Notes: a model not told the origin generated them from the sequence alone. 64,000 nt of DNA from Elusimicrobiota bacterium (GCA_021730935.1 JAKFYJ010000010.1:6500-70499), one strand, 5' to 3'; numbered from the stretch's first letter, positions 1 through 64,000 are shown. Made by a program: numbers and translations.

Positions 1-3000
1 TCCACCGTCGGGCAAATATCCCAGGTCTATGGCGTTATCAACGGGCAGGCCAAACTTCTCTCATCGAGAACGGCTTCAATTCAAAATGAAGTTCCGACCG
101 TCCGCCAAACTTTCACCGCGCCTCAGCCGGCGGCTCAGACTCAAACCCAGCCTCAGGTTCAGACCCAGTCTCTCGCGCCCGTGACCGCGCCTGCTTCCGA
201 ACAAACTGTCGATCTGGACGCTTCAGGAAACCTGACCGGAGCTTCTTTCACAGTCGGCGGAGTTCAATATCTCCTCGGGAGCGACGCGAACGGAAACCTG
301 ACGGTGAAATATCAGGATGCGAACGGCGAATGGCTTGACGGCTCTGCCTCCTTCGACGATTCCAATGGGCTCACGACGATCTCAATTGAAATGGGGGGAG
401 CCCTCTCTGTCCTGGCCACGCTCAACCAATCCACCAAAGAACTGATTTTCTCTCAGACAGGCGAAACATGGACGCTTGAGAATGAAGCCGCAATGGGGAG
501 CGTCCAAAATCAGGATGTCACCGTCACCTATGTTTATGATTCCAAGGGCCGCCTGACAGCCGCTCACGGAACCGGAAGTTTCGTGGGAGACGACGGTTTC
601 GGAAACCAGACTTCCGGCAGAATCAGCCAGTCGTATCTCGTCCTCATGGGACAGGCCAAGATCAACCAAAGCGTCACGCTTTCAAACACCGCCAACCTTG
701 ATGGTTCCACCCAGGACCAAAGCATGACCGTCACCTATCGTTATGATTCCAACGGCGCGCTTTTGAACGCCAGCGGACGCGGCACTTTTGTCGCCGTGAA
801 CACGGACGCTTCCGTCACAACCGGCAACATCACTCAGGATTATGTCGTGCTCGACGGCCAGGCCAAACTTTCTTCTTCCAGGACGGATTCCTCCAACAAC
901 TATCCTGATCAGTCCCATCAGGACCAGACCCTGGTCATCGCTTATGAATATGACGGAAGGAACCGCCTGAAAAGCGCCAAGGGCAAAGGGACTTTCACCC
1001 AGAGCGACAAGTTCGGAAACCTCCAGCATGGCGGCATCGCTCAGGACTATGCCGTCCTCATGGGACAGGCCAGGATCTCCAAATCCGTCACCAACACCAC
1101 GGTGGAGAACCTTGACGGGTCCAGTTCCCAGCAGGACCAGACGGTGGAATATATTTATGATTCTTCGGGCCGGGTCCTCGGCGCGACAGGCGCAGGCGTC
1201 TCCGTCTCCAACGACGGATACGGCAACCTCACAACCTCCCGATCCTTCCAAAACTATTCCCTCATTTTAGGCCAGACCAAACTTTCTCAAACCCTCTCTC
1301 ATTCCGAAACCCGAAACCTCGACGGTTCCTCTCAAGTCCAGGACATGATCCAGACCCAGGATTATGATTCCAAGGGCCGATTGATCGGCGCGCACGGCGG
1401 CGGAACCTTCAGCTCCGACGACGGGTTCGGCAACACAACATCGGGGACCCTCAGCCAGATTTATGACATCATCAATTTTCAGGCCAAACTCATGCGGTCC
1501 GTCACAGAATCCAGCACGCTCAACCTGGACGGTTCATCCCAGTCTCAGATCACCACGGTGGATTATGCTTATGACAATCTCGGATTGCTCTCGTCTTCCT
1601 CCGGTTCGGGTTCTTTCAGCTCGAACGACGGCTATGACAATCTTACAAGCGGAACCATAACCCAGACCTATTCAGTCATCCAGGGCCAGGCCAAACTCTC
1701 GGCATCCGAAACCCTTTCTAACACCGCAAACCGGGACGGGTCCACTCAAACCCAAACAGTCACCGTGGCCTATGGCTATGACGCCAACGGCAAACTGACA
1801 TCCGCGGGGGGGACCGGAACATTTTCTTCCAACGACGGATTCAACAACGTCACCGCCGGCACCCTCACCCAGATTTACAGCATCGTCAACGGACAGGCCA
1901 AGATGGGAACTTCCGCCACGGTCTCGGACACGCGCAACCTCGACGGATCCACTCAGCATCAGAGCGTCACAGTCGCCTATGTTTATGATTCCCTGGGCCG
2001 CGTCCTCTCCGCTTCCGGTCAGGGCTCGTTCAATTCCGACGACGGCTATGGAAACCTCACCAACGGAACCATCGCTCAGACTTATGCCGTCGTGAACGGC
2101 CAGGCGAAACTTTCCGCTTCAGAAACGGTTTCGCGCACCCTGAACCTCGACGGCTCCACGCAAGACCAGACCGTCATCGTTTCCTATGCGTATGACCGCT
2201 TCGGAAAAATCCTCTCCGCCTCCGGCATCGGAACATTTTCATCCAACGACGGTTACGGCAACCTGACCTCCGGCAACATCGAACAGTCCTATGTCATCTT
2301 AAACGGTCAGGCCAAACTCTCTTCTTCAAAAACCGTTTCGGACACGCTCAACCTCGACGGCTCCACTCAGCGCCAGACCGTGACGGTTGATTATGGTTAT
2401 GACGCCGACGGCTTCTTCCTCGCTTCCGCGCTCGGCAAAGGTTTGTTCAGCTCCAACGATGGTTTCGGCAACCTCACCTCCGGCAGCATCGACCAAAAAT
2501 ATTCCATCATCCGCGGCCAGGCCAAACTGGATGCCTCGGAAACCGTTTCCCGCACCGCCAACCTTGACGGTTCCACGCAAGACCAGACTGTGACGGTTTC
2601 CTATGCGTATGACAGCGTCGGAAAAATCATCTCCGCCTCCGGTTCCGGAACATTTTCATCCAACGACGGGTTCGGAAACCTCACCTCCGGGAACATCCAT
2701 CAGACTTATGCCGTCGTGAACGGCCAGGCCAAAATCGCCTCGTCGCAAACGGCATCCCAAACGCAGAACCTGGACGGGTCCACCCAGGACCAAACCGTCA
2801 CCGTCGCTTATTCTTATGACCCTCTGAACGGCAAACTCCTTTCCGCTGACGGCTCAGGCGTTTTCAATTCCAACGACGGATACAACAATCTCACGTCCGG
2901 AACCATCAATCAAACCTATGCCGTCGTGAACGGCCAGGCCAAACTTTCCGCTTCAGAAACGGTTTCGCGCACCCTGAACCTCGACGGATCCACTCAGGAC

Positions 3001-6000
3001 CAAACGGTCACGGTTTCCTATGCCTATGACGCGGCGGGCAAAATCATCTCCGCGGACGGCAGAGGGACTTTCAATTCCGACGACGGTTATGGCAACCTCA
3101 CTTCCGGCAGCATCGCGCAGTCTTATGTCATCGTGAACGGTCAGGCCAAACTTTCCTCCTCTGTGACGGTTTCTCACTCCGACAACCTTGACGATTCCAC
3201 GCAGGATCAGACCGTCACGGTTTCTTATGCTTATGATTCCGTCGGCAAAATCGTTTCAGCGTCCGGGGCCGGAACATTTTCCTCCAATGACGGATTTGGC
3301 AACCTCACTTCGGGAAAAATATCCCAGTCTTATGTCATCGTGAACGGACAGGCGAAACTGGCCTCTTCCGAAACGATTTCCGACACGGCGAACTTGGACG
3401 GCTCCACCCAAAATCAGCGGATGCTGGTCAATTATGCTTATGATTCCGTCGGCAAAATCATCTCAGCGTCCGGGACAGGAACCTTCGGATCCGACGATGG
3501 CTTCGGCAACCTCACTTCCGGCCGCCTCACGCAGTCTTATGTCATCCTGAACGGCCAGGCGAAACTTTCTTCGTCTGTCACAGATTCCAGCACGGTCAAC
3601 CGGGACGGGTCCACCCAGCATCAGCTCATGACGGTCTCTTATTCTTATGATCCCAGGACCTTCAAACCCGCTTCAACCACAGGCAAAGGCGTCTTCGATT
3701 CCAATGATGGATACGGAAACCTCACAACCGGAGACATCGAGCAGACTTATGTCCTCATCAACGGCCAGTCCAAACTCGCGTCATCCATCACGGCGTCTCA
3801 CACTCAAAATCTCGACGATTCCGTTCAGGACCAGACTGTCACCGTTTCTTATGCTTATGACAATGTCGGCCGCCTCACCCGCGCTTCGGGCGCCGGAACC
3901 TTCAATTCCAACGACGGCAACGGCAACCTCACCGCCGGAGACATCCTTCAAACCTATGACATCATCCGAGGCCAGGCGAAACTGGTCTCATCCCAAACTG
4001 ATTCCCACACGCTCAACATCGACGGGTCCACTCAGGACCAGACGGTGACCGTCCGTTACACTTATGATTCCCTCGGCCGTTCTCTGACCGCTTTCGGGCT
4101 CGGCTCCTTCACTTCCAATGACGGATATGGAAACCTGACTTCCGGCACCATCACGCAGACATATGTCAGCATCAACGGCCAGTTCAAACTCGAGTCTTCA
4201 GAAACCGTTTCCGATTCCTCCAACCTTGACGGTTCCACACAGCATCAGAGCGTGCTCGTGGCTTATGTTTATGATTCCGTGGGCCGAATCACCGGCGCCT
4301 CCGGAGCCGGAACCTTCGTTGCAGACGACGGATACGGCAACCTCACGGACGGAAACATCGCCCAGTCTTATTCCGTCATCAACGGACAAGCCAAACTCTC
4401 CTCCTCAAAAACAGATTCCAACATGATCAATCTCGACGGTTCTTCCCAGGTCCAGAGCGTGACCGTGGATTATGCTTATGATTCCGTCGGCCGGCCCTTG
4501 AGCGCGGACGGAAACGGCTCGTTCCGATCCAACGACGGTTTCGGCAACATCACTCTCGGGACCCTGCATCAAACCTATTCCAAAATTGCGGGCCAGTTCA
4601 AAATGACGGCCTCCGAAACAGTTTCAGAAGTCAACAACCTTGACGGATCCGCTCAGCATCAGGCCGTGACCGTGGTTTATGCCTATGACAGCGCGGCCCG
4701 CCTGATTTCCGCAGTCGGAGATGGAACCTTTTCCTCCACCAGCTTCAAAACCCTTTCCCAGGGCACCCTCCACCAGACCTATGACATCATCCTGGGCCAG
4801 GCGCGTCTCTCGGGCACCGACACCCGGACCCTCACGACAGAACCCGTCACACTGATTTCGCAATATGCAGAATCCCAGGGCTCGGCGTCCAATGTCTCGG
4901 CCACGCTCAATTTTGACGCCGCGAAAAACCTGCTCGGCGGAGAAATCCTCAACCTGAACGGACGCAAATGGATCGTGAGCTGGGACGACACGGCCCAGGC
5001 TCTGGTTCTCTCGGTTTTGGACAGCGGCAACAACAAGGTTGCCGGAACCCTTTCCATGCTCTCTGAAACGTCCGGCCTCGCTTCATTCGAATTGATTTCA
5101 GCGGACGGAGAAACCCATTCCGTCACCGTCGACAAACAAAGCGGCCAGGTCGCCTTCAACAATTCTCCCGTCGTCCTTTATACCGCCAACGGCCCCGTCG
5201 TCGTGAGCCCGGACCAGGACCAGTTCGTGACCGTCACCTATAAGCATGACGCCAACGGCAAACTCCTGTCCGCCGAAGGCCGCGGAAACTTCACCATCAA
5301 CGACGGATACGGCAACATCACCGAGGGCCGGATCGAACAGGAATATCTCATCATCAAGGGCCAGGCCAAACTTTGGAAGAACGAAACCAAAACCTGGTCC
5401 GGCGGCGGCCTGCTGGACAGTTTCGGAAACCCCGGATCCAACCAGGACAACAGCATGAACAGCCAGGACCTCACGGTTTATTATGCCTATAATGCCGTGG
5501 GCTCTCTCGTCGCGAGCGGCGGGGTTTTCGGCGGCAAAAACGGGGACGGCGTCACTCAGGGCGAAGGAACGATGTGGAGCGATTCAGGATTCGGCGATGT
5601 CACGCTGGGGAACATCACTCAGACTTATGAAGTCGTCATGGGACAAGCCAAGCTCAAGACCTCCCGGACCGACACGCACACGATGAACGCGGACGGAAGC
5701 CAGACCTGGCAGGACGGGTCCACCCACAACGGCGTCCAGACCCAGGGCATCACGGTCACTTATTCTTATAACGCTTTGGGGCTCATGACGGGAGCGGTCG
5801 CCGACACAGGCGTTTCCATGAGCCGGGACGCTTATGGCAGCTGGACCAAAACCACCACCACGCAGTCCTATATGATGATTTCCAGCATCGGGCAGGCCAA
5901 ACTCAGAGAAACGGCTTCTGTTTCCGAAGGTTTCAACCTTGACGGCTCATCGTCCCGCCAGGAGATGACGGTCACCAACAATTATGACGCCAACGGCTCT

Positions 6001-9000
6001 CTCGTCGCCGCTTCAGGCAAGGGAAATTTCGTTTCCAACGACGGCGCCGGCAACATCACCTCAGGAAAAATCACCCAGGTTTATGTCATCATCGCAGGCC
6101 AGGCGAAACTGTCTTCTTCCCGCACGCTTTCCGATTCGTTCCATCAGGACGCAAACGGCGCTCTCGTTGCCGGCAACGCGGACGGATCTTCCCAAACCCA
6201 GGACCTCACCGTCTCCTATACCTATGATTCCAAAGGACTCCTGACCGGAGCGCACGGAGCCGGAACTTTCAGCAACGAATCCGCTTTCGCCTGGACGGAC
6301 TCTGACGGAGACGGAACGGTGGATTCTCAGGTGAGAGAAGGCCCTGCCTCCAGCGGCACCATTGAACAGATTTATGCGGTCATCAACGGCCAGGCCAGGA
6401 TGATCGAATCCAAAACCATCACTCTCGCAACCGACGCCGCAAGGGCCGCAGGAAGGCCCCAGGCCCAGGCCGAGCTCGACGCCGCGCTTCCCGTTCTCCA
6501 GGCCGCTCAGTCTGAACTGGACGCCGCAAATGCGTCCCGCGATTCCAGCGAACTCACCATGAACAGCGCCGAAACTCTTTATCGCGCGGCCGTCGCCGAG
6601 CTGGAACAGCGGAGAGCCGAATATGACAGCGCCGTCAACGAACATGACGCCGCCGTGACCGCCTATAACATCGCGCTTGCAGAGCTGGATAACGCCGCCC
6701 TGCTCAGAGATGAAGCCGCCCGGCAGGCAGACCTTTCTGATCAGGGGTATCTGGACGCCGTCGCGGCCTATGACGCCGCCGTGGTCGCTTATCAAAATTC
6801 CATCCCGGCCTATGACGCCGCCGTTGCCGCTTATGACGCAGCGATCGCGCCTTATGAAGCCGCCAAGGCGGAACATGAGGTTGCCCTTGCCGCCTATGAT
6901 CAAGCCATCTCTGTTTATGACAACGCTTTGGCCGCTTATGACCGGTCCAACACGGCCTATCGTGACGCGATCAAACAATATACGGACGCCGTGAAAGTCC
7001 GCGACCAGGCCGTGACGGATGCGATCAGGAAACACGACGCGGATTATGCCGCCCAATTGCCCATCCTCCACGCCGCGGAAATTGTCCTCTCGGCCCGTCA
7101 GACAGACCTGGACTGGTCCATCTCGAATCTCAAGAGCCAGCAATCCAATGGAAATTTAAGTTATTCCGACTGCATTAAAATTCTCGAAGATCAAGGCAGG
7201 ATGGATCTTTATTATGCGGCGCAAACCGACGTGAAGGAAGCCAAAGAAACATTGAACAGAATCGACAGCGCGCGCGACGCGAAGATCTCTCAGGCGAACG
7301 CCACACTCTCCACATTCAAACAGGCGATGGACCTTGCCTATGACGACATGCTCTCCAAGCTGTCCGATGTGGACGCATCTCTGACGGTGAAAGACGCGAA
7401 ACATGCTGATTTGACCCAGGCCTATAATTTTATGGTGGCGAAGAAAGCGGTCATGGACCTCGCCTTCGATGTCAAATCAAATGCCTTCACCGTGATGGAT
7501 AACGATTACAATTTCACTCTCAACCGCGCGGCTCTCGTGCAGGTCGCTCTCGAATGGAAAGCCTATACTCCGGCCTATCTCGCCGAGCGGACCCAGATCC
7601 TGACGGATCGGCAGAACGATGTCTCCGCCGCCTCTGGCAGCATGTCCGCAACCGACTCCGCCATGCAGGCCAAACTGGACGCCCTTCAAAGCGCCCAGTC
7701 CGCAGTCGTTCCTGCCCAATCCGCTTTTGCTTCTGCCGCTTCCGCGTTCCAGGCCTCCGCCAGTCTCGCGGACCAGAAACAGCAGGCTTTCGACGCCGCG
7801 CAGGACGATGTGAATGAAAAACGCGCCGTCCTCAATTCCATTCCTCTTTATGCGCCCACCTCCGAACAGAATATATCGGTCAAATACACCTATGATGCCA
7901 AAGGCCTCCTCACAGGCGCTGTGGGAGACGGAACAACCCGGTCCGACGACGGGTTCGGCAATGTTTCCCTGGGAACCATCCATCAGGACTATGCCGTCAT
8001 CCTCGGACAGGCCAGGATCACTGCCAGCAACACCAAGACCTGGTCCGGAACCACTGGATCGGACTTTGCGCATCCCGGAGTGAACCTTGACGGAAGCAAA
8101 AACACCCAGGACACCACGGTTCACTATTCTTATGATTCCGCCACGGGCCGCCTCACGGGAGCCGCAGGAAGCGGTTCCATGTGGAGCGACGACGGATATG
8201 GCGATGTGACCACCGGAATCATCAGCCAAACCTACGGCATTTATAACGGCCAGGCCAGGATGACGGAAACCACCACCGTCTCGGACAGCGCGAATCTGGA
8301 CGGGTCCACCCAGCATCAGTCCGTCACCGTTTCCTATACGCTCGACAGCAAAACAGGCATGGTCACGGGAGCCTCCGGCACAGGCGCCTTTGACGGCAAC
8401 GACGGATCCGGCAACCTCACTTCCGGCACATTGGCGCAGAAATATGTGATCCTTGCCGGGCAGGCCAAAATGAGCCGATCCGTCACCGCGTCCGACACCA
8501 TCAACCTTGACGGAACCACCCAGCATCAGGTCATGACCGTCAACTATAAATATGACCTGAAATCCGGCGCCCTCATCAAAGCGTCCGGTTCGGGAACTTT
8601 CACCTCCAATGATCGTGGGAGCGTGAACGCGGGAACCATAACCCAGGGCTTTGAAATCATCAACGGCCAGGCCCGCATTTTCCGGAACATCACCGTTTCC
8701 GATTCTCTCAACAAAGACAAATCTTCCCAGCATCAGGAAGTCCGCATGATTTATGTCAACGATCAGGCCACGGGCAGACTCGTGAGCGCGTCCGGTTCCG
8801 GAACTTTCAGCGGAGACGACGGGTTCGGAAACAAGAGTTTCGGCAAACTCTCCCAATCTTTCGAAGCCATCAACGGACAGGCCCGCATGACGCAAAACGA
8901 CACGGTCACCGAAACCCGCAATCTGGACGGTTCCGCCCAGCATCAGGAAATGTCCGTGGTTTATGTGAATGATCACTCCACCGGCAAGGCTCTGACCGCG

Positions 9001-42984: not shown

Positions 42985-42994
42985 AAATGGAAAT
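42979..42994. repeat. Direct repeat, left copy (CAATAAAAATGGAAAT), includes the TAA stop of gene 1
   Basis: Exact 16-nt match to 43579-43594, exactly 600 nt away. The match extends to 19/20 identities from 42975. Confidence 0.9.
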
Positions 42995-43510: not shown

Positions 43511-43516
43511 GTGCAA

Positions 43517-43545: not shown

Positions 43546-43578
43546 GAGCAGTCCGGCGCTGAACAGGGCTTGAGACAA

Positions 43579-43594
43579 CAATAAAAATGGAAAT
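43579..43594. repeat. Direct repeat, right copy (CAATAAAAATGGAAAT), includes the ATG of the response regulator
   Basis: Exact 16-nt match to 42979-42994. Confidence 0.9.
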
Positions 43595-44980: not shown

Positions 44981-45087
44981 TCGGTTTCTGGGCGTCTAAA
45001 CTCAATCTTCACTGGCTGAAATCCACCGCGGCAGTCCTCGCCTGCGCGCTCCTCTTCTCTTTCATCGCCCCGCCCTTCGCCCAGGCC
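44977..45087 (+). other. Sec-type signal peptide of gene 2
   Basis: MIGFWASKLNLHWLKSTAAVLACALLFSFIAPPFAQA / GIWEDRR: a basic n-region, a hydrophobic core and an AQA cleavage-type site. Confidence 0.7.
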
Positions 45088-57000: not shown

Positions 57001-60000
57001 CTCCTCCAGGATCTCTTCACCCTTGCGGAAAACTCTCCCGAAATTTTGATCGTGAAAGCGAAAAGGATTGCGATAAACCTGGGATCAAATTCAAAACTCG
57101 CGGACGATGAGGTTCTCGCCATGGAAGAAATCTGGAATGATGAGAAACTTTCTCCTCGCGACAAAAAAAATAAGCTTCAGACGGCTTTTGAAACCCTGCA
57201 CCTCAAAGTGCACGGTTCGGACCTTGATTCAGCAGACTCCGAAAGAATTCAGACTTTAAGAGACGCTGTCGAACGGCTTAAAACCGTCGCGTCCGGTTCG
57301 GACGACGCCATATCCCAGCTCGAAAAAATTTCAGCGATTTTAATCGCGGACCGCACCCAGGCCAGGCCTGAAGGAATTGTTCCAATCTTCTCGCGCCTGA
57401 GTGAAACACTGAAGTGGAAGGGACGCGAAGGAATGTTCCTTTCTGAAATGTTCCAGACCTGGGACACCGCTTTCATGGGCCGTTTTGATCCTTTCGTCGA
57501 TTACCGCATCGCTCTCAAAGAATCAGAAATCCATCAGATGTCCGCTCTGGTTGCAAATGGAATGGAACCCATCTCTGTTAATCTCGAATCCATCACCTTG
57601 CTCCATAAGAGCTTGGATCCGAATAACCCTGAGAACAGCTCTTCAAACGCAAGGAATGATCCGAACAGTCCCCAATATCAGTCCGGAAAAATAAGCCAGG
57701 GACTCGTGAAATACGGGACCCTTGCGATCCCGGTCATCCCCGCCAAAGCCATGGGCGGAATCTATAAGGTTTTTGATAAGCTGAAGCTCGGGAAAGATCC
57801 TGTCACCCGCACAATGTTCTCAATATTTCTCCCCGGATACAGTGAAAACAGGGCGCGGCCTGCCAGAGTTCTCACTGAACGGGACAGAGCCAGAAACGCG
57901 TTCCGAAACGCGGATAATGTTCTTTTGAGAACCGTGAATCAGATCAATGGCGACATTCAGGCGTATCTCGAATCAGACGAGGTAAATTACGAAGTGCTCA
58001 CGCAGGCGCAGGAACGCATTAGCGCGCAGGTCCCGGATATGGATGAACCACTCCCTCCGCTTGAATCGAAAAGCAGAAATGACACCATGCGCGGTTTCCT
58101 TAAAAATATCAACGTGCTAGTTACAAATGCCGGTGCAGTTCGGAGTGTGAGCCGCAGCAACCTTCTCTCACAGGGTATTAATCTTGCAGGGATGAGCCGT
58201 CAGACTTCAGGCGATGCCGGAGAAAGACTGATCGTCGGATTCTCCCCAGGCTCTCAATTGGCCGCTGGAAGTCCGCGCGTCGTGCAGGCGGAAGGCAGGG
58301 CCAAAGTTGAATCGGATATTCTTGAGGCGATGAAGATTGCGGGGACCCGCTCGCGCGCAAGCTTGAATTTTGTTCCTGATCCTGAATTCCTCACCCAAAC
58401 ACACCCCGGAAAATTTTTGTGGAGCACCGCGCGGAACCCTTCGCTGGGCATGACTCTGTTTGACCGTTCTTCAATAACTCCGGCCCAGCTCCGAACCCAG
58501 GAACATCGCGCCAAATGGGCTGAGATCGGCGTGGATGCTGAGAAAATGCGAAGCGCAGACCAGATCGAAGACGCCTATGGCCAGATTGCTGAGCTGCTGG
58601 TCGCTCAACAGATGCCGGAAACCATCCGGCAGACCATCCTCCAGAAATTTGGATATGTGACGGGGGCCGGTTTTAAAGGCTCATTGGAAAATCTGAGCCA
58701 GGAACAAACACAGAATCAGTTCAGGAATTTGTTTTATACCGCTTCCAGCAACCTGTCTCACGCGATGGCCCAGCTTAAAACTGCGGCCGGAATCAACAGC
58801 GGCTATCTCATTTCAGCGTCGCTTCCTGAAAACTTTGACAAGATGGTTTCACTGGGAACCAATATCACGGCGCTTGTCCAGCCTGATTTCATCACGCTTC
58901 CCGAAGTCAGGCAGATGAATGAGGATTTCGACAGGCTGAAATCTCAAAACGCGGCAGTCCGGCAAGAAAGACTCTTCCCCGTGATCAACGCCAATATCGT
59001 CAGAAACAGATTTTCAGACACCACAGAACTTCAAACACAGCTGTTTTGGAGATTTGTCGGGGAAAATGTCAACGCCAGAAGCGCGACCCTGAAGAGTTTC
59101 ATGCGGACCGTTGACCTCCAGATCGAAGACCGCACTCGGAATCTTGCAAATTTCAATGAAAGACAGAGGTCAAACGTCACCCGCGCGGCTGAACAGCTTG
59201 AGCAATTGGACAAAGAAATCTCTATCGTTTCAGATCTCCTCACCAAGAGCAATGAACAATATGAAAGAAATGAAATCACAGTCGCGCCGGTGATGTCCCT
59301 CGTGAGCCGGCTTGGCCAGCTCTATCGGGACCGGATCCATGTCGTTATGGTTTTCGCCACCACCTATGATTATTTGGCTGAAATCTCCGGACTGGACAAC
59401 CTTGAGACAGTCATGAAAAAACAGGGAATGGTTGATTCGGACGGCGAGTCTTCAATCACCAATATCATCAGGGAACTCAAGCCGCAGATTGAGGAACAGG
59501 AACGGCTGGCCGCTGAAAGCAAGGATAAGCCTTATGTGATGCCGGCTGACTGGGCAGGTTTGAAAGACCGCGCCCCTCCGGCTTTCGTTCAGAACCCCGG
59601 CAAACCCGCGATCGCGTTTCAATCGCAGACAAAAGTTTTCTCCATCGCACGAAAAGGTCAGCCGTTCAACATGTCGATCGGCCATCTGTCCATCGCTCCT
59701 GCCTCTTTAAATCAGTCGATGGCGGAGTTTATGAAGTCGCAAAACATTCCGGACACCGATCTGCACATCGTTAACCACGCTGATTTGGCAGGGCTCCTGC
59801 ATGAAGCGCTTGGGAATGATGATATGCGCTATTCCATCCCTGAATACAAGCGCGAACAGATTTCCAGGAATTTCTTCCGGGTCCTTCCCAGAGTTTATGA
59901 ATCTCTCAAGGGAGCCCGAAGCCCGGATGACTTGCCGAACATTTTATCTTCCTCGGTTTTTGACGCCTATGCTTCCCGCCTCATTCCCAAACTGAATGTT

Positions 60001-63000
60001 CTTCTTTCCAGCCCTGAAGTTCAGTCTCAATCCGATTCCAACCTCGTCAAGAAATTCGCGCTTGCCTTCATGTATGCCGTTGAAATGACCGAGGAGGTTT
60101 CAGAATCCCAACAAGACCGTTTCCTGACGGATCGAGTTGACTATGACCTGAACATGCTCCGGATCGGACTTTTGAAGCGTCAAGGCGACCGCGCAATTTC
60201 TCAGGAAGATTTTGAAAAATACATGACTTGGGAAGCGGATCGGGGAAACCTCTGGACCCGTCTCATGATCACCAAACGCATGCCGGCCGCAGACAAAGAC
60301 CGTTATGTCGCCGCCGCTCACAAGTTCATTGCCCAGTTTTTCCCGAAAACCGAGCAAGCGCAAGCCCTGAAAGATCGAGAACTCACCAAGTTCGGCGACT
60401 TGCGCCTGGAAAGCATGTATCGGTCCCTCATGTCGTTTGCAATGGCCAACAATCTGACTCCTGAAGACCTCAACAACTACATGAAAGTGGTGGGCGGGTT
60501 CATTCCCGAAGTTCAAAAGTTCACGTCGCAGGCCACCCTCCAGGATTTGTCACAATTAGCCGAGTCCGAACGAATCCGTCTGCTCTTGGAACGGCTCAGC
60601 CCGGCTGACACGCGCTGGAGCGCCGACGAAAAGAGAAGTCTTGAAGCACAGCTCAAAATTGAAATTGAAGAAGCCAGAGATTCCATGACCCTTTCCATCG
60701 CCATGTTCTGGAGCCAGGAATTCCTTCGCGATTTTGCATTCCTTCGAGACGGCAAATATGATTTAAAAGCCGCTTCTCAGGGCGCCACCCTCCGGCTGAT
60801 GCAGGCGAACTTTAAGTCGTTTATGGATAAAGCGGCTCAACTCCGCGAGATGAAGGCGACCATAGACGGAGTCCCCAATGTTAATCCGGTTGAAGTTCTT
60901 CTTCAGCGCCAGAGAGGTCTTTCTTCCGGGCAAAAAATCAACTGGTTTGAAGCGGAGAATCAGGGATTTGTTTCATCTCTGGTCGTGGACTCCATCAGGG
61001 AGAACTGGGACACGATGCCTTCCCAGCAGAACGAGCTTCCGGAATTAAAAGCGCACCTTCTGAATTTGGTCTCTCTCTCGAATGACGCGTTCAATCCCGG
61101 AAAATCCAATGGACATCTGCAGAACGTCAAAAAATATTTTGACTTAATCGGACGCCGCCTCGACTTCAAACTGAAACCTGGAAACGGATCCGATCCCGCC
61201 GAAATTAAAACGGAGTGGGGAGTGCTCAATGGGATGCTGATCGGCCTCGAGCATATCTATAGAAAAATTGGTCTGACTGAACAGGAAATCAGACAAGGGC
61301 TTGAAGATTATGTTTTAGTGCGCGACATCATCGTCAAGGAAAACATAGACATCGCCGAGAGCCTGGACACCTATTATCTGACGGCCGCGTATCATGCCGA
61401 CGACATCGACACCGGGGAACGGCTTGACCTTTCGCTTCCCCGGCGGGCCGCTTTCAGACAAATGATCGAAAAAATCGCTTTGGACAACGATCAGCGCATC
61501 AAGGCAAGCCTTGAATATGGAAGCGACAATAATTTTGCCTCCAAAGCTATTCACGAGATATTGAGGCAGTATCAATCCAAACAAAAATCGGAACGCGCGC
61601 AGAGGCAGAAAGAATATCGCGATGAAATCGCTCGGGACCCCGTGACAAGCATCGAACGGATGAAGAGTCTCCTGGCTTCAAAAGCTCGAATCGCCTTTAA
61701 GGAAATTTCTCTCGACAAAGAAAAGTTTTTAGACAGCACACAGCTGTCCTTTTTGGCCTACCGCATGGTTGAATTTGGATATACCCCTGAAGAAACTCTT
61801 GAAAGATTTGTTTATCTCATGGAGCGCGTCAAAGAGCACTATCTGAATGTGTTCAAAATGCCCCTCACTCAGGAAGATGAGTTTTATATCGCATCCTCCG
61901 CGGACGCTATCTGGCAAAAATGGGGTTATATCGATCCCAAGGACAGGCCGGAAGTTGACAGAAGAATTGCGGCCTTGCCTAAGATTGGAAACATCCAATT
62001 TCACAATCTCGAAGAACTCATTCAGTTTGAAGTGAATAACTCCAGCCAGAAATATTCAAGCATGAAAGCCATCATCAATATGGATTCGTTCCAGGAATTG
62101 GCCCGCGCACAGGGGAGAAAAATCACTTCAATCCCGGCATCACCGCCAGGGACGATCGACAGCGTTTTCAATGCAGAGACTCAGAATGTTTCCTACAAAG
62201 CTCTCACAAACTTGCGCTACGGCGTCATTCAGGGAAGGGCATCCGGTCAGCCCGACCGTCCCGTCGACCATATCGTGATCGATAACACCCAGGACCGGCG
62301 TTCAGACACAAAATCAACCAATATAGCAATGGACCTCCTCTCTGCGATCACCGCTTATGAAAGCGGCAAGGTCTCATTCAAGCAGGCGGAATACCTGGAT
62401 ACGGTCAACCATATCCGTCAGGTTTTGTCCGCACTGAAGGAACTTAAAGCCGGCTCTAAACCCGCTCCCGGGAACATTTTCCCTGAAAACATAGATATCG
62501 GAACCTCCCTTAAACCTCATCGAGAGCCCGATGGCACGGTGCGTTATTCTTCAATTGATTCCGGCTGGCTGACCTTCGCTCTGTCCGTTGTTTATAACTA
62601 TTTTGGAAAGAGTGAGGACGGTTCGCCCAGAGATCCCGGTCTTGCCGCGGCCGCGTGGGACCTCATTAAGGATCAGGATTACGGCGTTTTCGTCCGTCCT
62701 GAAGACCGCGGTCAGCTGAATCAGCTGTTCACGCTTGGCTCAGCGGGGGAAATTCGATATTCTGCCAACCATTATCTTGACAGGAACAGCGAAGCCCGGG
62801 TCATCGTTCCCGCACTCACAGCGATAAAGAACGCGCAAGGCCGCAACATGCTCCCGGAAAGCGCGTGGGACGCGATGGAATACAATTCCTCGGACCAGCA
62901 GGGTCTCAAAGTGGCGAACGGATATAAATTCAACGGTTTCGTAGAAATGATCGGGAACGCGTTTTTTGACGAAGCGGCCCTTGCGCCGAATGCCCTCGGC

Positions 63001-64000
63001 ATAAGCCATAAAAATTATGTTGAAGCCCAGCGAAGAGCAAGTTCTGCGGATTCCATTATTTATGGCTATGCTCCCGCAAGATTTAAAGCATCTGGAACGC
63101 AGGATTCTCCGGCCTATACGGAGTTTGGTTTGGAAAATACCGCATTTGTGACGCCCTATGCCGCGGCCGCCCTTGCCACAACAGGCGATCCCGGCGCTAT
63201 GGACAATCTTAAAAAAGTCATCAGCGCTCTCCCCAAAGACGGCCGGCCTCTGCCTGACGCTCTCGACCCCAAAACAGGAAAAGTTCACTATTCGGGAGCG
63301 TTATCCCTCGACAATGCGCTTTTCTTCCTTTTTTCAAATTATGAAACCCTGCGGCAAGTCATAAAGAAAACGAACTGGTATCCTCAGGTGGAAGAACAGC
63401 TGAAACTGATGGATAGAATCAACAGCATTTCGAGCATTCAGGACAGAACAGGAATAGCGGCCCGGACAGCCTCCTCATCGGTGCTCAGGCTTGTGCGGGT
63501 GAATCGGGGGGGAATGTTGGAAGGGATCGGATCGGATTATTTGCCTGTCACTGGGGCAGGTCCCAGGCGCGAAGCCGCAAGCTATTTCCCTCCCTTTTAC
63601 GCGCCGATCACTCCAGGGGCCCTCCTTGAATCCGGGAATCGCGCAGTGGGTTCAGTCGCGTCACGAATCGTGAGATCGAGGATCACAAGACAGAGCTCTG
63701 GACCTCAATCTCCCCAGGAACCGTCAGTCCGAGCAGGGGCTGTCGATGAAAATCTCCGGTCTCTTGCCGATGTCTTTGCTCAGGAAAAAGATTTGGAATC
63801 CTGGAGCAATGAACAAATGGGCCAGCACCTGCGGAATGTGGATTTTGTTCGCAAGAATTATCTGAATGAACTTCAGGAATACGCGAATCTGTTCGGAGAG
63901 CCGACAATACTTGACGTTTCCGCGACCGATGCCCAGCAGGCAAGAAAGATTTGGGGCGTCATTATATCGCGGGTTCGCGACTTGGAGCGGGCCAACGACA
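44977..64000 (+). CDS. Second giant multi-domain envelope protein, 3'-partial (>=6,341 codons in window)
   Basis: Frame 1 is open from ATG 44977 (the first start after the in-frame TGA at 44941-44943) to the window end. I read it through by eye and spot-checked it at several positions. No + strand frame-1 ORF is listed in the track between 45 and 64 kb, which fits a single ORF without a stop in the window. Coding-type codon bias is present. Confidence 0.88.
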   Translation, partial: MIGFWASKLNLHWLKSTAAVLACALLFSFIAPPFAQAGIWEDRRKAVEQMNRDKEKTRDAFKPARSVPSASTEPKVSIPGFGDGFTVPSGLGSVVESWGGTQTLEAKAKGYPLVIHIQDAHGFYGAQKNEAALLKHISESSSPILVSAEGAWTPVDARWLEALPDPGFRSVAAENLLRSGEITGEQFLAITEGAEKIKITGAEDERIYKANLKSRELLESERPAILAKLNESLNRINETKKIVFQDKLLSLDIASRQFEAQKITLAEYLKFVQSRFALDPAKYPSLRQLSDLAASEDALPMSAVEQERKSVLDSLSDKLDKMTLAQLAQTSLNFRTGKMPASVFYDTLIKLARVNNIPTPSLDKYLDYLARSESLDPQKALAELKSFESEAMLSLAAGRPEPQKLIIESRGMRSRLKFWDEKFSPADWAEYQKMQSENFAEGVPGGKLSAAQLKFLQDAYYKLAFKRDRIMVEKTLSAANEQASVVLVAGGFHTPGITHILREMGVPFIVIRPSLNSPAPAQTARKPFTKAEYSAFAQKYAANLEALRSGKNPESDKTIAQVIDIIQNRLSFSEPVEKDGQTLVYGAFQGDQSRVYFKMSYDRTIASEPLASADFQDALKASMGSLRALTVLADPTDVPKLVRTILYATQPNEIKGVVEDEIPKELQNPGADEIAERLKLAAAVARAKGAQTPAPSPAPTDNQPAASKKSGSATFNLPRASSFFLPLLLVSGAALAVYGVQLLSGLHLSPEIAMHLPSIQGNSSGIWGAAAALPTLSVMKVLDIFLDRKNNLRSEANQELQDRGYTVVEFRDEGVSPFSQAGQYKGPLAELTEKARVVPSEVTAKPLKHFETGRDISVRYKGAQAVIAMVNGLSEWIIEHSNGNGAILYRETPGGLEIIARDFGRPISNLSKLDRLLEFARDVACSGRAGTFTIESGGKHNKYNGIVWNPEISKSEVKNGSYIVIDLKRQVVGGAVVHTGTQKLDENPVSSDATETPTAQDWYTAYVSAKALPMIQNGKHQFSMTRFEINAAARDNNFVFKPTLLGDIIAKPATIEVNEYTLTLNPEGPNVRVMIKRNDQNFSPPKAHNLVQNVAASAAALFVAKSGLFLLGWAASPILLSLGFALMSGGAVIGMILGGQALAVGFMRALSSLGTASPEREAELREKLAARGFDIDKIKFKDLGRFTSARTSGGNRVGISPWLAFKFNNRLLDGLMTRIILPMIVEHEGLRNDLFRRGYVRSNTFIVYLAKSLKFNSFTPKSNTSNDITLQTASNKTRLWESFARSAIVLVPMGLALFSYLTSASGLMTIPLVTAILNGSGSFIVPLMAKIPFLSGVAGGAPVAVIGLMFTLIVFELSGQMVGEIYRIILKQMGYRTAGIGLTSGKDEVLQALKEDHGLDDQTLETLRALSRSGLTRLYVALEREKISQQGDQKALANAKRKQMHEQEQQKFMQSAPLLVRPFYFGFNKIVHLINDLVGIFHSFVFQFYIDSFSRYALGRSSKLSDEQKIHLNNYARSLAGRITADGRVNIPASLTSSNLSLKAGYSFGNMMRFVPGAYLWQSNVFLRGTINLLKKRSTLYMISSVFGKGLLPHILSPPVLESSALYFVAAFLFFRFLYSVYESLKARQTAGSDKSIQRPRILWSKLAWALTVVMVSIVVTGVLSPDASFIQSLFVQSSVNPGIHQFLGSNYLEVINPATIKLFGLNLHFSFQGIISPLLTTLGIGFTGYLRSETLQRAASNEQYQGTLSGFSVEQVENAIANLNKLENNDAIKIARALKRDILAGYVQRGGSHVNASDYERDRLLKLLETAVGEKNLWDISAPNLAEVLVGGVKSLRTLGRISTLDSLSHGTFSMWTVTPEIQAVVYGAGQIDSVINHLPFVHGVETRAELDLIKTAESSMRNSPNPQHSALQALHSNVELDKTAAERMISAVEHLPSDAKADTVAQALHETASKVSWVTDTVNLVESDQQGVMSLGDQFGKWIYAATGFEFGEQNRTAELRTMFNIAARNLQNEKILSSMARDREKDSTARENEPVKQDIQVKSDRMISENISTPRIPLRTNPAPVSAASGGSGPGGGGNGGPGDGKNLLSFISPIAFGSSLISGTLPLGSQIQKVGEVAYNASGLPQFLTNPFGPKDAVTDFIPSRAEQSDQTAVSNAPYDERLIQEVRDRQTANAQNKTMMTVIHADDALNSDPKNKIYDRLKNSVSARLFREEIERARQASRIAGNSNFLDLFVQGRFSRGPLLRYSPDSTSPATRLDGSSSDIGRAAGQILGRTFGQGQGIRGLSENSNPLSPSDFAPHNLIATNGELIKEVVNAAVSAVNAEKPKPVSIDKNSTVRIKETSQKIMDSDEYFRQLGQPIVQSAKTRQRTSTPARPDAQSVERQSPINLVNSAAVQSFLGIDRERLQNLIEHGENDGYFTIGLLSYFLGHDDPSTAVIEGQGYSADQVDQLFQKFVFLKDNQAFMKIFNLDGRDGRSLLSDFESAGILTYFADSLRDVNGDGRLDFVVPGGSQSAVSQTPSVQDSIRNFASSLGQNAVDIVDGVPVLRFTDAAGTPYVPDALDANLFFSAWAGILFSEVYGDFTNPAAESSYQGLNRLGLILQTASADPKERSTAITVLAHYGVLALRFEPVKDANGKIIGVTQRIWTDRNQDGIETPDEVFTAPQTMDSDTYLQSIIFASRLPGVRVRLENQEIIFINPRTNEPYITVDLMTLAGLKDGNGNLTAQALQAIAVLAYSENTALKLVPIWSSDDPATRRIVGGRMEIWHDSNGNGVLDGPEELAMPPQNIDPDVLAHGAAYISSLTGVVEYHSGDAVVMTSDGRPFMRIDLEVLSGIKSENGKPTADAVLAQSILGLYSGLSLYVKATENGLVLRRYTDVDHDGKFTEGVDKPASPDESIDPNESAWLQVQISEMPEMVKLVSSKIYQQLQVQANGEDKAAASLAKGSLGKIQAFADLGFIDQEGFQRDLTGKQRETIPLEENIRVQNMLISHPAMLAELDPEAAKFLRVNGKLNNIADLEALSGDKNANQSDRLMAQKILGLGAFIAGLTTKVIYDDQGNPVNVLLSVVVRKYGKESRLDFPLRSTDPRPAKMLYDLFLNAHEAVLMNIENFAKIINEGRGEFIPVNPTTEMLVDPNAFLGSLFFGNYGVLTQPVTFEMFGLDNLSVDLDGDGKPDEVTRFSILTASSRNPADGETPDEKLARESNNEKIQYIQKVNSIVTDLALNRGIYEKETGKDIQVMLREMNEAANGDFREWVRTAYGREPRMTEGDFYFLLFLERDASIRGVTIHDLLYDKRFKAELILTRIFFDSGIAQRRSVARWDKKLSEDMFRDVLMNQAEYVADLLNDASTATEQIDRSRVTLLQLLKDFDDAKRKVAAGIEKTDILKDLEYRILSEDRQLRSFPNTLDDAVMNLKNVLGYSPADHVTFDSDAESVNKLLTAFGVPDHHSLTIQLAQQRVERARAAIPSEYPISFSLRDSINLLRVVSGGVDPISVLNLETRGNFIDPSRRHRINAAILAYAQAVFDLDKITIEEAGKARDAGRLLSFWESELKAVESKVSNLTARIREEEIKVAADNAPLRTLEDLRSQLDDANKSLITARRSYLRYQNQSLKFVNPVAPFEGPKVSPVVRFLEGSEKVVANVLHPQAAVFKGIKFIGKIFGKTTVSLDETLRNIRTNPLTQASAPFGDSSEIGSVINQALERNEDFRKAVTQISIENSNQKALSGSKWPSISVIGRYFSFLDPTGVNPRKFGDFLTKGDLFLNLGLNWSAYDSQRAVKRHMIQNNLDIARLGVVQTANKFYSAVARSLQDRLNLKLQIAATESYIDNLKEQYENTRRYKDSNIDVNVDQASLERQIEDAESSRRETQENLILSEGKIRDLAGNQANDLLIRSESMTPDQLEKSLSFMRFEGLVREDKVNGKTVSVFTDHAQDEIKSFRSNLDAASDALRVLQAREIVENLKSVKKSSPRAFNKADTIFNQMNVLYDNPKMAPGLKTSQLDRLLQDLFTLAENSPEILIVKAKRIAINLGSNSKLADDEVLAMEEIWNDEKLSPRDKKNKLQTAFETLHLKVHGSDLDSADSERIQTLRDAVERLKTVASGSDDAISQLEKISAILIADRTQARPEGIVPIFSRLSETLKWKGREGMFLSEMFQTWDTAFMGRFDPFVDYRIALKESEIHQMSALVANGMEPISVNLESITLLHKSLDPNNPENSSSNARNDPNSPQYQSGKISQGLVKYGTLAIPVIPAKAMGGIYKVFDKLKLGKDPVTRTMFSIFLPGYSENRARPARVLTERDRARNAFRNADNVLLRTVNQINGDIQAYLESDEVNYEVLTQAQERISAQVPDMDEPLPPLESKSRNDTMRGFLKNINVLVTNAGAVRSVSRSNLLSQGINLAGMSRQTSGDAGERLIVGFSPGSQLAAGSPRVVQAEGRAKVESDILEAMKIAGTRSRASLNFVPDPEFLTQTHPGKFLWSTARNPSLGMTLFDRSSITPAQLRTQEHRAKWAEIGVDAEKMRSADQIEDAYGQIAELLVAQQMPETIRQTILQKFGYVTGAGFKGSLENLSQEQTQNQFRNLFYTASSNLSHAMAQLKTAAGINSGYLISASLPENFDKMVSLGTNITALVQPDFITLPEVRQMNEDFDRLKSQNAAVRQERLFPVINANIVRNRFSDTTELQTQLFWRFVGENVNARSATLKSFMRTVDLQIEDRTRNLANFNERQRSNVTRAAEQLEQLDKEISIVSDLLTKSNEQYERNEITVAPVMSLVSRLGQLYRDRIHVVMVFATTYDYLAEISGLDNLETVMKKQGMVDSDGESSITNIIRELKPQIEEQERLAAESKDKPYVMPADWAGLKDRAPPAFVQNPGKPAIAFQSQTKVFSIARKGQPFNMSIGHLSIAPASLNQSMAEFMKSQNIPDTDLHIVNHADLAGLLHEALGNDDMRYSIPEYKREQISRNFFRVLPRVYESLKGARSPDDLPNILSSSVFDAYASRLIPKLNVLLSSPEVQSQSDSNLVKKFALAFMYAVEMTEEVSESQQDRFLTDRVDYDLNMLRIGLLKRQGDRAISQEDFEKYMTWEADRGNLWTRLMITKRMPAADKDRYVAAAHKFIAQFFPKTEQAQALKDRELTKFGDLRLESMYRSLMSFAMANNLTPEDLNNYMKVVGGFIPEVQKFTSQATLQDLSQLAESERIRLLLERLSPADTRWSADEKRSLEAQLKIEIEEARDSMTLSIAMFWSQEFLRDFAFLRDGKYDLKAASQGATLRLMQANFKSFMDKAAQLREMKATIDGVPNVNPVEVLLQRQRGLSSGQKINWFEAENQGFVSSLVVDSIRENWDTMPSQQNELPELKAHLLNLVSLSNDAFNPGKSNGHLQNVKKYFDLIGRRLDFKLKPGNGSDPAEIKTEWGVLNGMLIGLEHIYRKIGLTEQEIRQGLEDYVLVRDIIVKENIDIAESLDTYYLTAAYHADDIDTGERLDLSLPRRAAFRQMIEKIALDNDQRIKASLEYGSDNNFASKAIHEILRQYQSKQKSERAQRQKEYRDEIARDPVTSIERMKSLLASKARIAFKEISLDKEKFLDSTQLSFLAYRMVEFGYTPEETLERFVYLMERVKEHYLNVFKMPLTQEDEFYIASSADAIWQKWGYIDPKDRPEVDRRIAALPKIGNIQFHNLEELIQFEVNNSSQKYSSMKAIINMDSFQELARAQGRKITSIPASPPGTIDSVFNAETQNVSYKALTNLRYGVIQGRASGQPDRPVDHIVIDNTQDRRSDTKSTNIAMDLLSAITAYESGKVSFKQAEYLDTVNHIRQVLSALKELKAGSKPAPGNIFPENIDIGTSLKPHREPDGTVRYSSIDSGWLTFALSVVYNYFGKSEDGSPRDPGLAAAAWDLIKDQDYGVFVRPEDRGQLNQLFTLGSAGEIRYSANHYLDRNSEARVIVPALTAIKNAQGRNMLPESAWDAMEYNSSDQQGLKVANGYKFNGFVEMIGNAFFDEAALAPNALGISHKNYVEAQRRASSADSIIYGYAPARFKASGTQDSPAYTEFGLENTAFVTPYAAAALATTGDPGAMDNLKKVISALPKDGRPLPDALDPKTGKVHYSGALSLDNALFFLFSNYETLRQVIKKTNWYPQVEEQLKLMDRINSISSIQDRTGIAARTASSSVLRLVRVNRGGMLEGIGSDYLPVTGAGPRREAASYFPPFYAPITPGALLESGNRAVGSVASRIVRSRITRQSSGPQSPQEPSVRAGAVDENLRSLADVFAQEKDLESWSNEQMGQHLRNVDFVRKNYLNELQEYANLFGEPTILDVSATDAQQARKIWGVIISRVRDLERAND
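45290..46520 (+). other. TraB/PrgY/ChaN (Tiki-superfamily)-like domain
   Basis: YPLVIHIQDAHGFYGAQKNEAALLKHI..ILVSAEGA at the start (cf. GT.H....Q/S ... VE) and VVLVAGGFHTPGITHIL (46424-46480, cf. V(V/A)GAGH..GI) at the end. Confidence 0.35.
47135..50170 (+). other. TM-helix-rich region of gene 2 with interspersed soluble inserts
   Basis: FFLPLLLVSGAALAVYGVQLL; AALFVAKSGLFLLGWAASPILLSLGFALMSGGAVIGMILGG; AIVLVPMGLALFSYL; GGAPVAVIGLMFTLIVFEL; ALYFVAAFLFFRFLY; LAWALTVVMVSIVVTGVL; IISPLLTTLGIGFTGYL. Confidence 0.8.
52828..53900 (+). repeat. About 3 tandem ~120-aa repeats, each carrying a DxDxDG-type calcium-binding loop
   Basis: Loops at 52936-52971 (DRNQDGIETPDE), 53296-53334 (DSNGNGVLDGPEE) and 53623-53652 (DVDHDGKFTE). 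The flanks align as ..(I/V)LA(H/Y)..L.L..(V/I)... W.D.N.(D/N)G....P(D/E)E ... (I/V)DL..L.G(L/I)K..NG..TA.A(L/V). Confidence 0.6.
56071..56643 (+). other. TolC/outer-membrane-efflux-protein (OEP)-like repeat 1
   Basis: INQALERNEDFRKAVTQISIENSNQKALSGSKWPSISVIGRYF...LFLNLGLNWSAYDSQRAVKRHMIQNNLDIARLGVVQTANKFYSAVARSLQDRLNLKLQIAATESYIDNLKEQYENTRRYK..NVDQASLERQIEDAESSRRETQENL..KIRDLAG is collinear with the TolC-family pattern (A...NP.L..A......A......A.....P.(L/I)...G.Y ... (L/F).(L/W)..(F/Y)D.....(V/I)..A...(A/N)...L......(V/I)..A(Y/F)......(L/Q)........Y..G.....(V/L)..A...L..A...). Confidence 0.55.
58969..59395 (+). other. TolC/OEP-like repeat 2
   Basis: RLFPVINANIVRNRFS...LFWRFVGENVNARSATLKSFMRTVDLQIEDRTRNLANFNERQRSNVTRAAEQLEQLDKEISIVSDLLTKSNEQYERNEITVAPVMSLVSRLGQLYRDRIHVVMVFATTYDYLAEISG follows the same pattern as repeat 1. 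A shorter OEP-like piece lies at 58441-58612 (SLGMTLFDRSSITPAQLRTQEHRAKWAEIGVDAEKMRS..). Confidence 0.5.
62250..63350 (+). other. (alpha/alpha)6-barrel glucoamylase-like / beta-1,2-glucanase-like (DUF3131/GH144/cyclic-glucan-synthase-type) domain
   Basis: TKSTNIAMDLLSAITAYESGKVSF (from 62314; cf. TSPTN(I/L)G..LLS..AA..LG.I), YSSIDSGWLTFALSVV (62551-; cf. (Y/V)S.VDSGNLA..L), C-terminal ..LSLDNALFFLFSN (cf. (I/L)DQGP..(L/M)(M/I)EN). Confidence 0.5.

Follow-up and report, generated by a model that had tools for sequence, protein, structure and literature searches.

Two giant predicted cell-envelope proteins, one with a divergent SecA-like-fold ATPase and one with a TolC-type repeat, in an operon-like gene cluster of apparent Elusimicrobia origin

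We analyzed a stretch of 64,000 nucleotides from an Elusimicrobiota bacterium (GCA_021730935.1, JAKFYJ010000010.1:6500-70499), called the window below whenever its whole length is meant. The window holds two giant genes on the plus strand (giant 1 and giant 2) and, between them, a minus-strand MazEF cassette made up of a toxin gene and a 62-amino-acid open reading frame (ORF), a gene for a CheY-like receiver, and orf305. It is still an open question how a bacterium produces, exports, and employs a protein of 10,000 to 100,000 amino acids (aa). Giant membrane proteins have been described from Omnitrophota and other PVC-group phyla (West-Roberts et al. 2023, bioRxiv 10.1101/2023.11.21.568195; 2026 preprint 10.64898/2026.06.07.730766), and a class of giants that combine many transmembrane segments, RHS-like tracts, and divergent SecA domains is already known. 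What is new here is an ATPase that is invisible to SecA hidden Markov models (HMMs), the tiny family to which it belongs, some of whose members are stand-alone proteins that bear an internal twin-arginine-type signal, an OEP (TolC-type) unit within a giant protein, and an apparent Elusimicrobia-like origin. The reading that we favor, at a probability of roughly 0.45, is that the cluster, operon-like in its packing, comes from an uncultured diderm and encodes two giants of the cell envelope that belong to this known class; giant 1 would be a fiber with a motor acting in cis and giant 2 a scaffold.

The two giants and their parts are given below. Helix clusters in both proteins were taken from hydrophobicity scans, in which the number of helices per cluster is ambiguous.

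1-42984, plus strand: giant gene 1, 14,327 aa or more, its 5' end lying outside the window
1-13200, plus strand: YD/RHS-type repeat tract, about 60 tandem units of about 69 aa, rich in Ser, Thr, Gly, and Asn
13201-17670, plus strand: second beta-rich region, aa ~4,400-5,890, with repeats of about 79 aa (LNSxDNRAxG) and a weak RHS_repeat match
17683-18762, plus strand: transmembrane cluster A, aa 5895-6254
24322-25920, plus strand: transmembrane cluster B, aa 8108-8640, 7 to 12 helices
28723-30600, plus strand: divergent superfamily 2 (SF2)/SecA-like ATPase, aa ~9575-10200, from motifs and predicted fold
31879-32589, plus strand: transmembrane cluster C, aa 10627-10863, about 7 to 8 helices, with a Lys/Arg-rich segment after it
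32590-41718, plus strand: helical region of about 3,000 aa, judged by composition, with no Pfam match
41719-41916, plus strand: transmembrane cluster D, aa 13907-13972; the 355 aa after it form a C-terminal domain without a family
44977-63999, plus strand: giant gene 2, 6,341 aa or more, continuing past the 3' end of the window
44977-45087, plus strand: signal-peptide-like N terminus, MIGFWASKLNLHWLKSTAAVLACALLFSFIAPPFAQA followed by G, from sequence and hydrophobicity
47134-50169, plus strand: about 10 hydrophobic helices in clusters, aa 720-1731 from the start Met
52480-54513, plus strand: DxDxDG calcium-type region, five motifs within modules of about 110-150 aa
55306-55908, plus strand: weak OEP-like repeat R1, frame positions 3455-3655, Pfam OEP E value of 0.2 (below threshold)
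56080-56637, plus strand: full OEP (TolC-type) repeat R2, frame positions 3713-3898, Pfam OEP E value of 2.1e-12
62281-63393, plus strand: segment formerly called glucan-hydrolase-like, with no match in Pfam, NCBIfam, or PDB sequences

In a six-frame analysis, the giant 1 frame ran from base 1 to the stop codon TAA at 42982-42984, a length of 14,327 codons. Because it is open from base 1 with no stop upstream, its 5' end is truncated by the window edge. The GTG at position 181, which the ORF lister called as the start, is not the real one, since the repeat array, which takes up the 4,400 residues that follow, already covers residues 1 to 15. The giant 2 frame is open from 44944 to 63999, and its first ATG lies at 44977.

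A preliminary description of this stretch had given giant 1 a long YD-repeat fiber, and the repeats were confirmed. The RHS_repeat model matched the tract of about 60 units with 41.2 bits against a Pfam cutoff of 22; many weak repeats contribute to this score. Classic YD repeats occur just ahead of the first membrane cluster. At the DNA level, TRF found a 207-bp period with 13.5 copies and 67% matches; a period of this kind at merely 67% identity indicates that the array is old. Giant 1 shares the YD signature and the long tandem arrays with Rhs/YD proteins and Tc toxin shells. Unlike Rhs/YD proteins, it uses a regular 69-aa unit about 60 times, lacks an Rhs core or toxin tip, and continues into membrane clusters and an ATPase. 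The fraction of Ser, Thr, Gly, and Asn is 0.35 to 0.39 ahead of cluster B versus 0.22 to 0.25 past it, where the protein becomes rich in Ala, Glu, Leu, Lys, and Arg, with Lys and Arg making up 12 to 14%. From hydrophobicity and composition, we infer that the N-terminal ~8,100 aa would be extracytoplasmic and the remainder cytoplasmic. Within the YD tract lies an Ala-rich, coiled-coil-like insert of about 540 aa (6388-8007, aa 2130-2669) that holds a 14-aa AAYDAA-type repeat (TRF period of 42 at 6757-6864). The ~79-aa repeat that follows the YD tract, LNSxDNRAxG[LF], has at least four clear copies in window positions ~13620-15180, at aa 4625, 4704, 4860, and 4939.

Next, we examined the ATPase module. 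Its motifs can be read directly: a Walker A motif, AAMAAGKQEGS; a Walker B motif, DDEVH; a motif III, ATGT; and an Arg motif, GRMNDIDGRRMKG. An exhaustive phmmer scan of 1.84 billion representative proteins returned just eight relatives. They comprise two fragments of one giant from a single metagenome-assembled genome (MAG) labelled Elusimicrobia (P0001, with 36% identity, and P0008), a protein of 2,039 aa, and five stand-alone proteins of 620 to 890 aa. The named stand-alone homologues come from Campylobacterota MAGs, and a further relative comes from a Sedimenticola MAG. In the alignment of nine sequences, the family motifs are GxGEGKQEG (Walker A), VDEFHA (Walker B), ASATL, and TQTRYRVG..GRA.G, with the Walker A Lys, the DE pair, and the Arg motifs conserved; a KDYY...G.PM..T.F.D..LA segment is conserved as well.

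The module itself (aa 9501-10300) found nothing in Pfam at E values of up to 10, in NCBIfam, in a phmmer search of the PDB, or in a word-indexed protein search, and a profile built from the family alignment did not find SecA among the PDB sequences. The SecA-like call draws its support from the predicted fold only. AlphaFold2 gave a useless model from the single sequence (pLDDT of 35); with the shallow family alignment, it gave a model with a pLDDT of 66 and a pTM of 0.61, with pLDDT values of 70 to 90 over the first 440 residues. This model has two alpha/beta (RecA-like) domains and a long helix after domain 2. The top Foldseek matches in the PDB were two structures of Bacillus subtilis SecA, 1tf2 (9e-11) and 2ibm (6e-8), with TM-scores of just ~0.3. 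DinG, Rad54, RIG-I/MDA5, and XPD came next at 1e-7 to 1e-5, which makes SecA the best structural match, about 1,000-fold better than DinG, Rad54, or RIG-I. When the module was aligned by hhalign with a 29-sequence SecA profile, all SecA motifs were colinear, at a statistically weak P value of 0.0085, and an insert of about 190 aa between Walker B and motif III aligned with the DYIV...TGR.M.GRR.S.GLHQA segment of SecA. Judged by its motifs and its predicted fold, the module is a genuine SF2 ATPase with SecA as its best structural match; its membership in the SecA family is not established. Like SecA, it has two RecA-like domains, the Walker A Lys, a DE(V/F)H Walker B motif, and the Arg motifs; a large domain 1 insert appears to lie where SecA has its preprotein-binding domain, and the model shows a long helix after domain 2. 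Unlike SecA, with which it shares about 13% identity, it has no HMM match, carries GKQ for GKT, is embedded in a 14,000-aa membrane protein, and has no demonstrable scaffold and wing domains.

What follows the ATPase along the chain is also informative. A membrane or signal segment comes after the ATPase in giant 1, in P0001, and in the stand-alone homologues. In P0001, about 430 aa lie between the ATPase and a membrane cluster, a spacing like that to cluster C in giant 1; in P0004, the segment is a twin-arginine signal of textbook form, TRRDFLKTAGKAAALVGAAS (Pfam TAT signal, 5e-4). This recurring order is the best argument for a role in the export of polypeptides rather than one on nucleic acids. 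The stand-alone homologues (P0002-P0007 and P0013; loci L003 and L089-L092) have their internal twin-arginine-type signal right after the ATPase and end in a small conserved C-terminal domain (PPGI..C.D, EPAYW); the Gln of their Walker A motif is invariant. They lie on short contigs beside toxin-antitoxin genes, with ParE in L003 and a PIN-like pair in L090. A role of the stand-alone family in a defense system was considered and rejected, as PADLOC gave nothing meaningful: one match to its typeIV_DinG model at 4e-4.

Apart from RHS_repeat, Pfam matched nothing in the 14,327 aa of giant 1, which was searched in 5,000-aa and then ~1,000-aa pieces. The effector-like C-terminal domains that had been proposed for it found no counterpart in Pfam or NCBIfam; neither database revealed an Rhs-associated core, PAAR, VgrG, or toxin domain, and the C-terminal domains showed no conservation with P0001. 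Two short motifs, neither with HMM backing, occur toward this end of the protein: a zincin-like HEAYH at 40546-40560 and a JAMM-like HTHPKG...S...D near the C terminus at 42175-42220.

Giant 2 begins with two Lys residues, a hydrophobic core of 19 residues, and AQA followed by G, in the manner of a Sec signal. Its helices lie at aa ~720-782, 1096-1159, 1286-1355, and 1602-1731, counted from the start Met. The predicted signal peptide and transmembrane helices of the preliminary description are supported, and its calcium-binding repeats correspond to five DxDxDG calcium-type motifs at frame positions 2513-3184, versus 0.3 expected by chance. Weak FG-GAP matches accompany these motifs, and no RTX nonapeptides were seen in giant 2. 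The N-terminal, putatively periplasmic domain (window 45850-46500) gave a weak match to TraB/PrgY/GumN (E value of 0.031) and holds HIQDAHG and GGFHTPG motifs reminiscent of that family.

TolC-like outer-membrane channel repeats had also been claimed for giant 2. One complete repeat was found, a second is weak, and the further ones failed. R2 scored 47.6 bits against a Pfam cutoff of 22 and covered profile positions 4 to 185 of 187; its beta-hairpin is readable as PSISVIGRYFSF...GDLFLNLGLNWSAYD. The N-terminal halves of the NCBIfam NodT and TolC models also matched R2 (E values of 8e-4 and 6e-3). With HMMs built from TolC, CusC, and R2, R1 scored 5.9 to 7.4 bits, above 127 of 127 helical background windows. 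Three more OEP-like units picked by eye failed this background-window test, and a small HMM of the OEP repeats found nothing else in giant 2 above shuffled controls. We had considered a single-chain TolC of five to six repeats; leave-one-out HMM tests backed R1 alone, and that candidate was rejected. In Pfam searches with pieces of ~5,000 and ~1,000 aa, OEP was the sole match in giant 2 above weak hits, and the glucan-hydrolase-like domain of the preliminary description found no support in Pfam, NCBIfam, or PDB sequences. No ABC, RND, or membrane-fusion genes stand next to the OEP unit, and no type I secretion system (T1SS) genes were seen in the window.

Giant 2 resembles TolC and other outer membrane factors (OEP, PF02321) in having one complete helix-hairpin-helix repeat with a weak second repeat ahead of it. 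TolC is a free-standing protein of about 450 to 500 aa, whereas here the unit occupies aa ~3455-3900 within a giant of at least 6,341 aa, which also bears a signal peptide and some 10 predicted inner-membrane helices. In canonical TolC, both chain ends are at the periplasmic end of the molecule. Therefore, with an embedded two-repeat unit, the thousands of residues on either side of it would stay in the periplasm and would not lie outside the cell, on prey. In the giant RTX-type T1SS adhesins LapA and MpIBP, a very long calcium-binding repeat protein is functionally tied to a TolC-type outer-membrane protein. Giant 2 is similar in being a very long protein with calcium-type motifs and a TolC-type unit. 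In LapA and MpIBP, the TolC-like protein has its own gene and the adhesin carries its T1SS signal at the C terminus, whereas in giant 2 the OEP unit is internal and neither RTX nonapeptides nor T1SS genes accompany it.

The genes and repeats between the two giants are as follows.

42975-42994, no strand: direct repeat, left copy, 20 nucleotides (nt), ACAGCAATAAAAATGGAAAT, including the giant 1 stop codon TAA
42994-43341, minus strand: MazF/PemK-type toxin gene, Pfam PemK_toxin E value of 8.3e-22
43328-43516, minus strand: putative antitoxin, 62-aa ORF, overlapping the toxin start by 14 nt, without a family match
43575-43594, no strand: direct repeat, right copy, ACAACAATAAAAATGGAAAT, a relic CAA CAA TAA plus the receiver ATG
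43587-43970, plus strand: single-domain CheY-like receiver, Pfam Response_reg E value of 1.6e-19
44063-44980, plus strand: orf305, hydrophobic N terminus, no known family

A PemK/MazF toxin gene together with a small overlapping upstream gene is the layout of a MazEF type II toxin-antitoxin system, and a promoter-like site lies ahead of the putative antitoxin ORF at 43545-43517; Pfam and NCBIfam identified no family for the 62-aa protein. The cassette is flanked by a 20-nt direct repeat whose copies are 19/20 identical and exactly 600 bp apart. When we removed the cassette in silico, the giant 1 TAA came to lie 2 nt ahead of the receiver ATG. Because the repeat duplicates the junction of the giant 1 stop and the receiver start, like a target-site duplication, we read MazEF as an insertion, as had been suspected; on the simplest reading of the sequence, the target at the junction was duplicated when the cassette inserted there. 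The codon usage of orf305 fits a coding frame (score of +0.24, with the other frames negative), and its stop codon overlaps the giant 2 start as ATGA.

With the cassette discounted, the gaps between the four co-directional genes on the plus strand are 2 nt, 92 nt, and -4 nt, in agreement with the tiny or overlapping junctions of the preliminary description. A consensus scan, weak evidence when taken alone, found no terminator-like site on the plus strand between the giant 1 stop and the giant 2 start. Such close ancestral spacing, together with the ATGA overlap, points to co-translation and co-expression, and the two giants are very probably co-expressed. Type II secretion and sugar-import genes had been suggested as neighbors; no gene for type II secretion, pili, or sugar import, no marker gene, and no tRNA or Rfam family was found within the 64-kb window.

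We then asked where this locus belongs. All named homologues of the repeat tract are proteins of "Elusimicrobia bacterium" MAGs by their NCBI label, and the repeat-region homologues also carry PF05593. None of the named homologues of the repeat tract or of the ATPase module is labelled Omnitrophica, and the nearest sequenced relatives are groundwater MAGs labelled Elusimicrobia by NCBI. No close relatives of the locus were found in the searchable genome and metagenome contig collections. In one related locus from a MAG labelled Elusimicrobia (L005, 1-13612), a 5,040-aa YD-repeat gene is followed by a YD-repeat giant of at least 1,204 aa. Tandem giants, seen also in L002, are thus typical of the lineage, and the pairing of a motor with a TolC-type unit is so far unique to this window.

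The preliminary description had compared the locus to the giants of Omnitrophota. The likeness to the published class (West-Roberts et al. 2023) stands, and the named relatives are labelled Elusimicrobia, not Omnitrophota. Like the giants of Omnitrophota and other PVC-group phyla, giant 1 exceeds 10,000 aa, has clustered transmembrane helices and RHS-like beta-repeat tracts, is mostly unannotatable, and has a divergent ATPase of SecA-like fold beside its membrane segments. Unlike them, its ATPase is missed by the SecA_DEAD HMM, the window contains no type II secretion or pilus genes, and the giant next to it bears an OEP unit. TolC, efflux, and OEP go unmentioned in the main text of either giant-gene paper (10.1101/2023.11.21.568195; 10.64898/2026.06.07.730766). 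The dockerin, CBM, GT, GH, C39, NUDIX, and methylase sets of the Archaeovorin and Dockerin types of Omnitrophota giants were not found here by Pfam.

In the reading that we favor, giant 1 would be a membrane-anchored fiber with at least 8,000 aa of beta-rich YD/RHS repeats outside the cytoplasmic membrane, into which transmembrane cluster A would stitch it. From cluster B on, the protein would be helical and cytoplasmic, tethered by clusters B to D and bearing the SF2 ATPase. This ATPase most likely acts in cis, as a dedicated motor that pushes or threads giant 1's own extracytoplasmic segments through the membrane; this cis-export role has been proposed for the SecA_DEAD domains that other giants carry (West-Roberts et al. 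2023, bioRxiv 10.1101/2023.11.21.568195). Giant 2 would enter by way of Sec with its signal peptide and stay anchored through its ~10 helices, and its long calcium-binding periplasmic part would lead to the TolC-type unit, made up of the strong repeat R2 and the weak repeat R1, and this unit may insert into the outer membrane. Giant 2 is thus most likely a scaffold or anchor between the inner and outer membranes. The receiver and orf305 would be co-transcribed accessory genes, and MazEF would be a later insertion.

Several results weigh against this reading. The topology comes from crude hydrophobicity and composition, with ambiguous helix counts per cluster, and the N terminus of giant 1, and hence any signal peptide, lies outside the window. 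The Ser/Thr of Walker A is replaced by Gln throughout the family (GKQEG; window 28930-28960). The preliminary description had placed a SecA-like motor between the transmembrane clusters and had named the lack of HMM support as grounds for giving that call up; the SecA_DEAD and SecA_PP_bind HMMs matched neither the module nor any of its eight relatives at E values of up to 10, and what survives of the call is an ATPase flanked by clusters with SecA as its best fold match. In the hhalign control, the DEAD-box helicase RhlE scored 29.6 versus 30.1 for SecA, with UvrB and DinG lower; because RhlE scores as well as SecA, we did not count the hhalign match as SecA-specific. For giant 2, the second OEP repeat is weak, and the two full-length models of the TolC/NodT subfamilies stayed far below their cutoffs (18.4 and 15.7 bits versus 210 and 225). 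No homologue of giant 2 was detectable in a word-indexed search with the OEP region or in genome and metagenome contig scans, and therefore its conservation, or its linkage to a giant-1-like gene, cannot be shown. Finally, in L002, the closest relative with genomic context, the gene that follows the ATPase-bearing giant is not TolC bearing; it begins 118 bp downstream with a signal peptide and YD repeats (L002 7424-8525).

Given these caveats, other explanations had to be weighed. That the giants are two independent surface or adhesin-type proteins in a tandem array, with the OEP unit and the ATPase serving their own proteins or persisting as degenerate relics, is possible, if on the unlikely side. 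The tandem giant genes in L005 and L002 agree with it, both proteins are mostly "dark" with no domains in common, and the literature reports genes of at least 10,000 aa as frequent in Elusimicrobiota and other PVC-group phyla, with several very long genes per genome. Such independence sits poorly with the tight ancestral junctions and the ATGA overlap, and the catalytic residues of the ATPase are conserved, not decayed. Whether the module acts on proteins at all is the next question. A nucleic-acid helicase or translocase of DEAD-box, ResIII, or DinG type would explain why two of the relatives, both stand-alone, match Pfam ResIII (7e-5 and 3e-4), and it is in keeping with the typeIV_DinG match of one homologue, the near-equal RhlE score, the rank of DinG, Rad54, and RIG-I directly below SecA in Foldseek, and the toxin-antitoxin genes that adjoin the stand-alone homologues. 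We nonetheless consider this identity unlikely: in the structural comparison, SecA leads by about three orders of magnitude, the ~190-aa insert aligns with a SecA segment, the module always stands ahead of a membrane or twin-arginine-type segment, and no nucleic-acid-binding domain was detected.

The preliminary description had gone further and joined both giants into one self-contained trans-envelope machine, with giant 1 as motor and attack fiber and giant 2 as an outer-membrane conduit for giant 1 or for effectors. The ancestral spacing of the four co-directional genes would suit this, as would a SecA-like-fold ATPase in one giant and an OEP repeat in the other in a window without separate secretion genes. 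Adjacency is the sole link between the giants, however; giant 2 has no homologues by which co-conservation could be shown, the pairing is absent in L002, and the tandem giants of the nearest relatives (L005 and L002) are YD type followed by YD type. Furthermore, just one to two OEP repeats are supported, and the passage of a fiber of more than 8,000 aa through a TolC-type pore would be without precedent. We regard this machine as quite improbable, and the notion of an integrated trans-envelope apparatus is speculation. Very doubtful is a version in which giant 2 would cross the whole envelope as a single polypeptide: an inner-membrane helix bundle would be joined through about 1,700 aa of periplasmic connector to a TolC-type channel unit of its own in the outer membrane. 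Co-translated with giant 1 and energized by the SecA-derived ATPase of the latter, giant 2 would then be half of a two-gene system for secretion or attack that does not depend on the numbered secretion systems. The RHS_repeat matches and the HExxH and HxH motifs near the C terminus could instead make giant 1 an Rhs-type polymorphic toxin, with a YD shell that delivers a C-terminal toxin and with the small neighboring genes as immunity. This is highly improbable, as the database searches found no Rhs-associated core, PAAR, VgrG, or toxin domain, the C-terminal part is not conserved in P0001, and the ~8,400 aa with four membrane clusters and an ATPase that come after the repeats are unlike any Rhs toxin.

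The stand-alone ATPases with their internal twin-arginine-type signals offer a tractable model for the idea of a motor that exports its own chain. Because an ATPase with a SecA-like fold was missed by standard HMMs, published counts of "SecA-bearing" giants may be underestimates. A TolC-type unit inside an inner-membrane-anchored giant would, if functional, be a covalent link between both membranes.

We also noted some features of the DNA itself. The GC content is 0.55 to 0.57 in the repeat-coding part (1-18000) versus 0.47 to 0.50 in the middle of giant 1 (20000-32000), and the GC skew changes sign at ~22 kb, inside giant 1. Antisense ORFs of 360 to 546 aa lie within giant 1 on the minus strand, at 7477-9117, 32830-34182, and 6061-7143, and are probably noncoding shadows of a biased coding strand.

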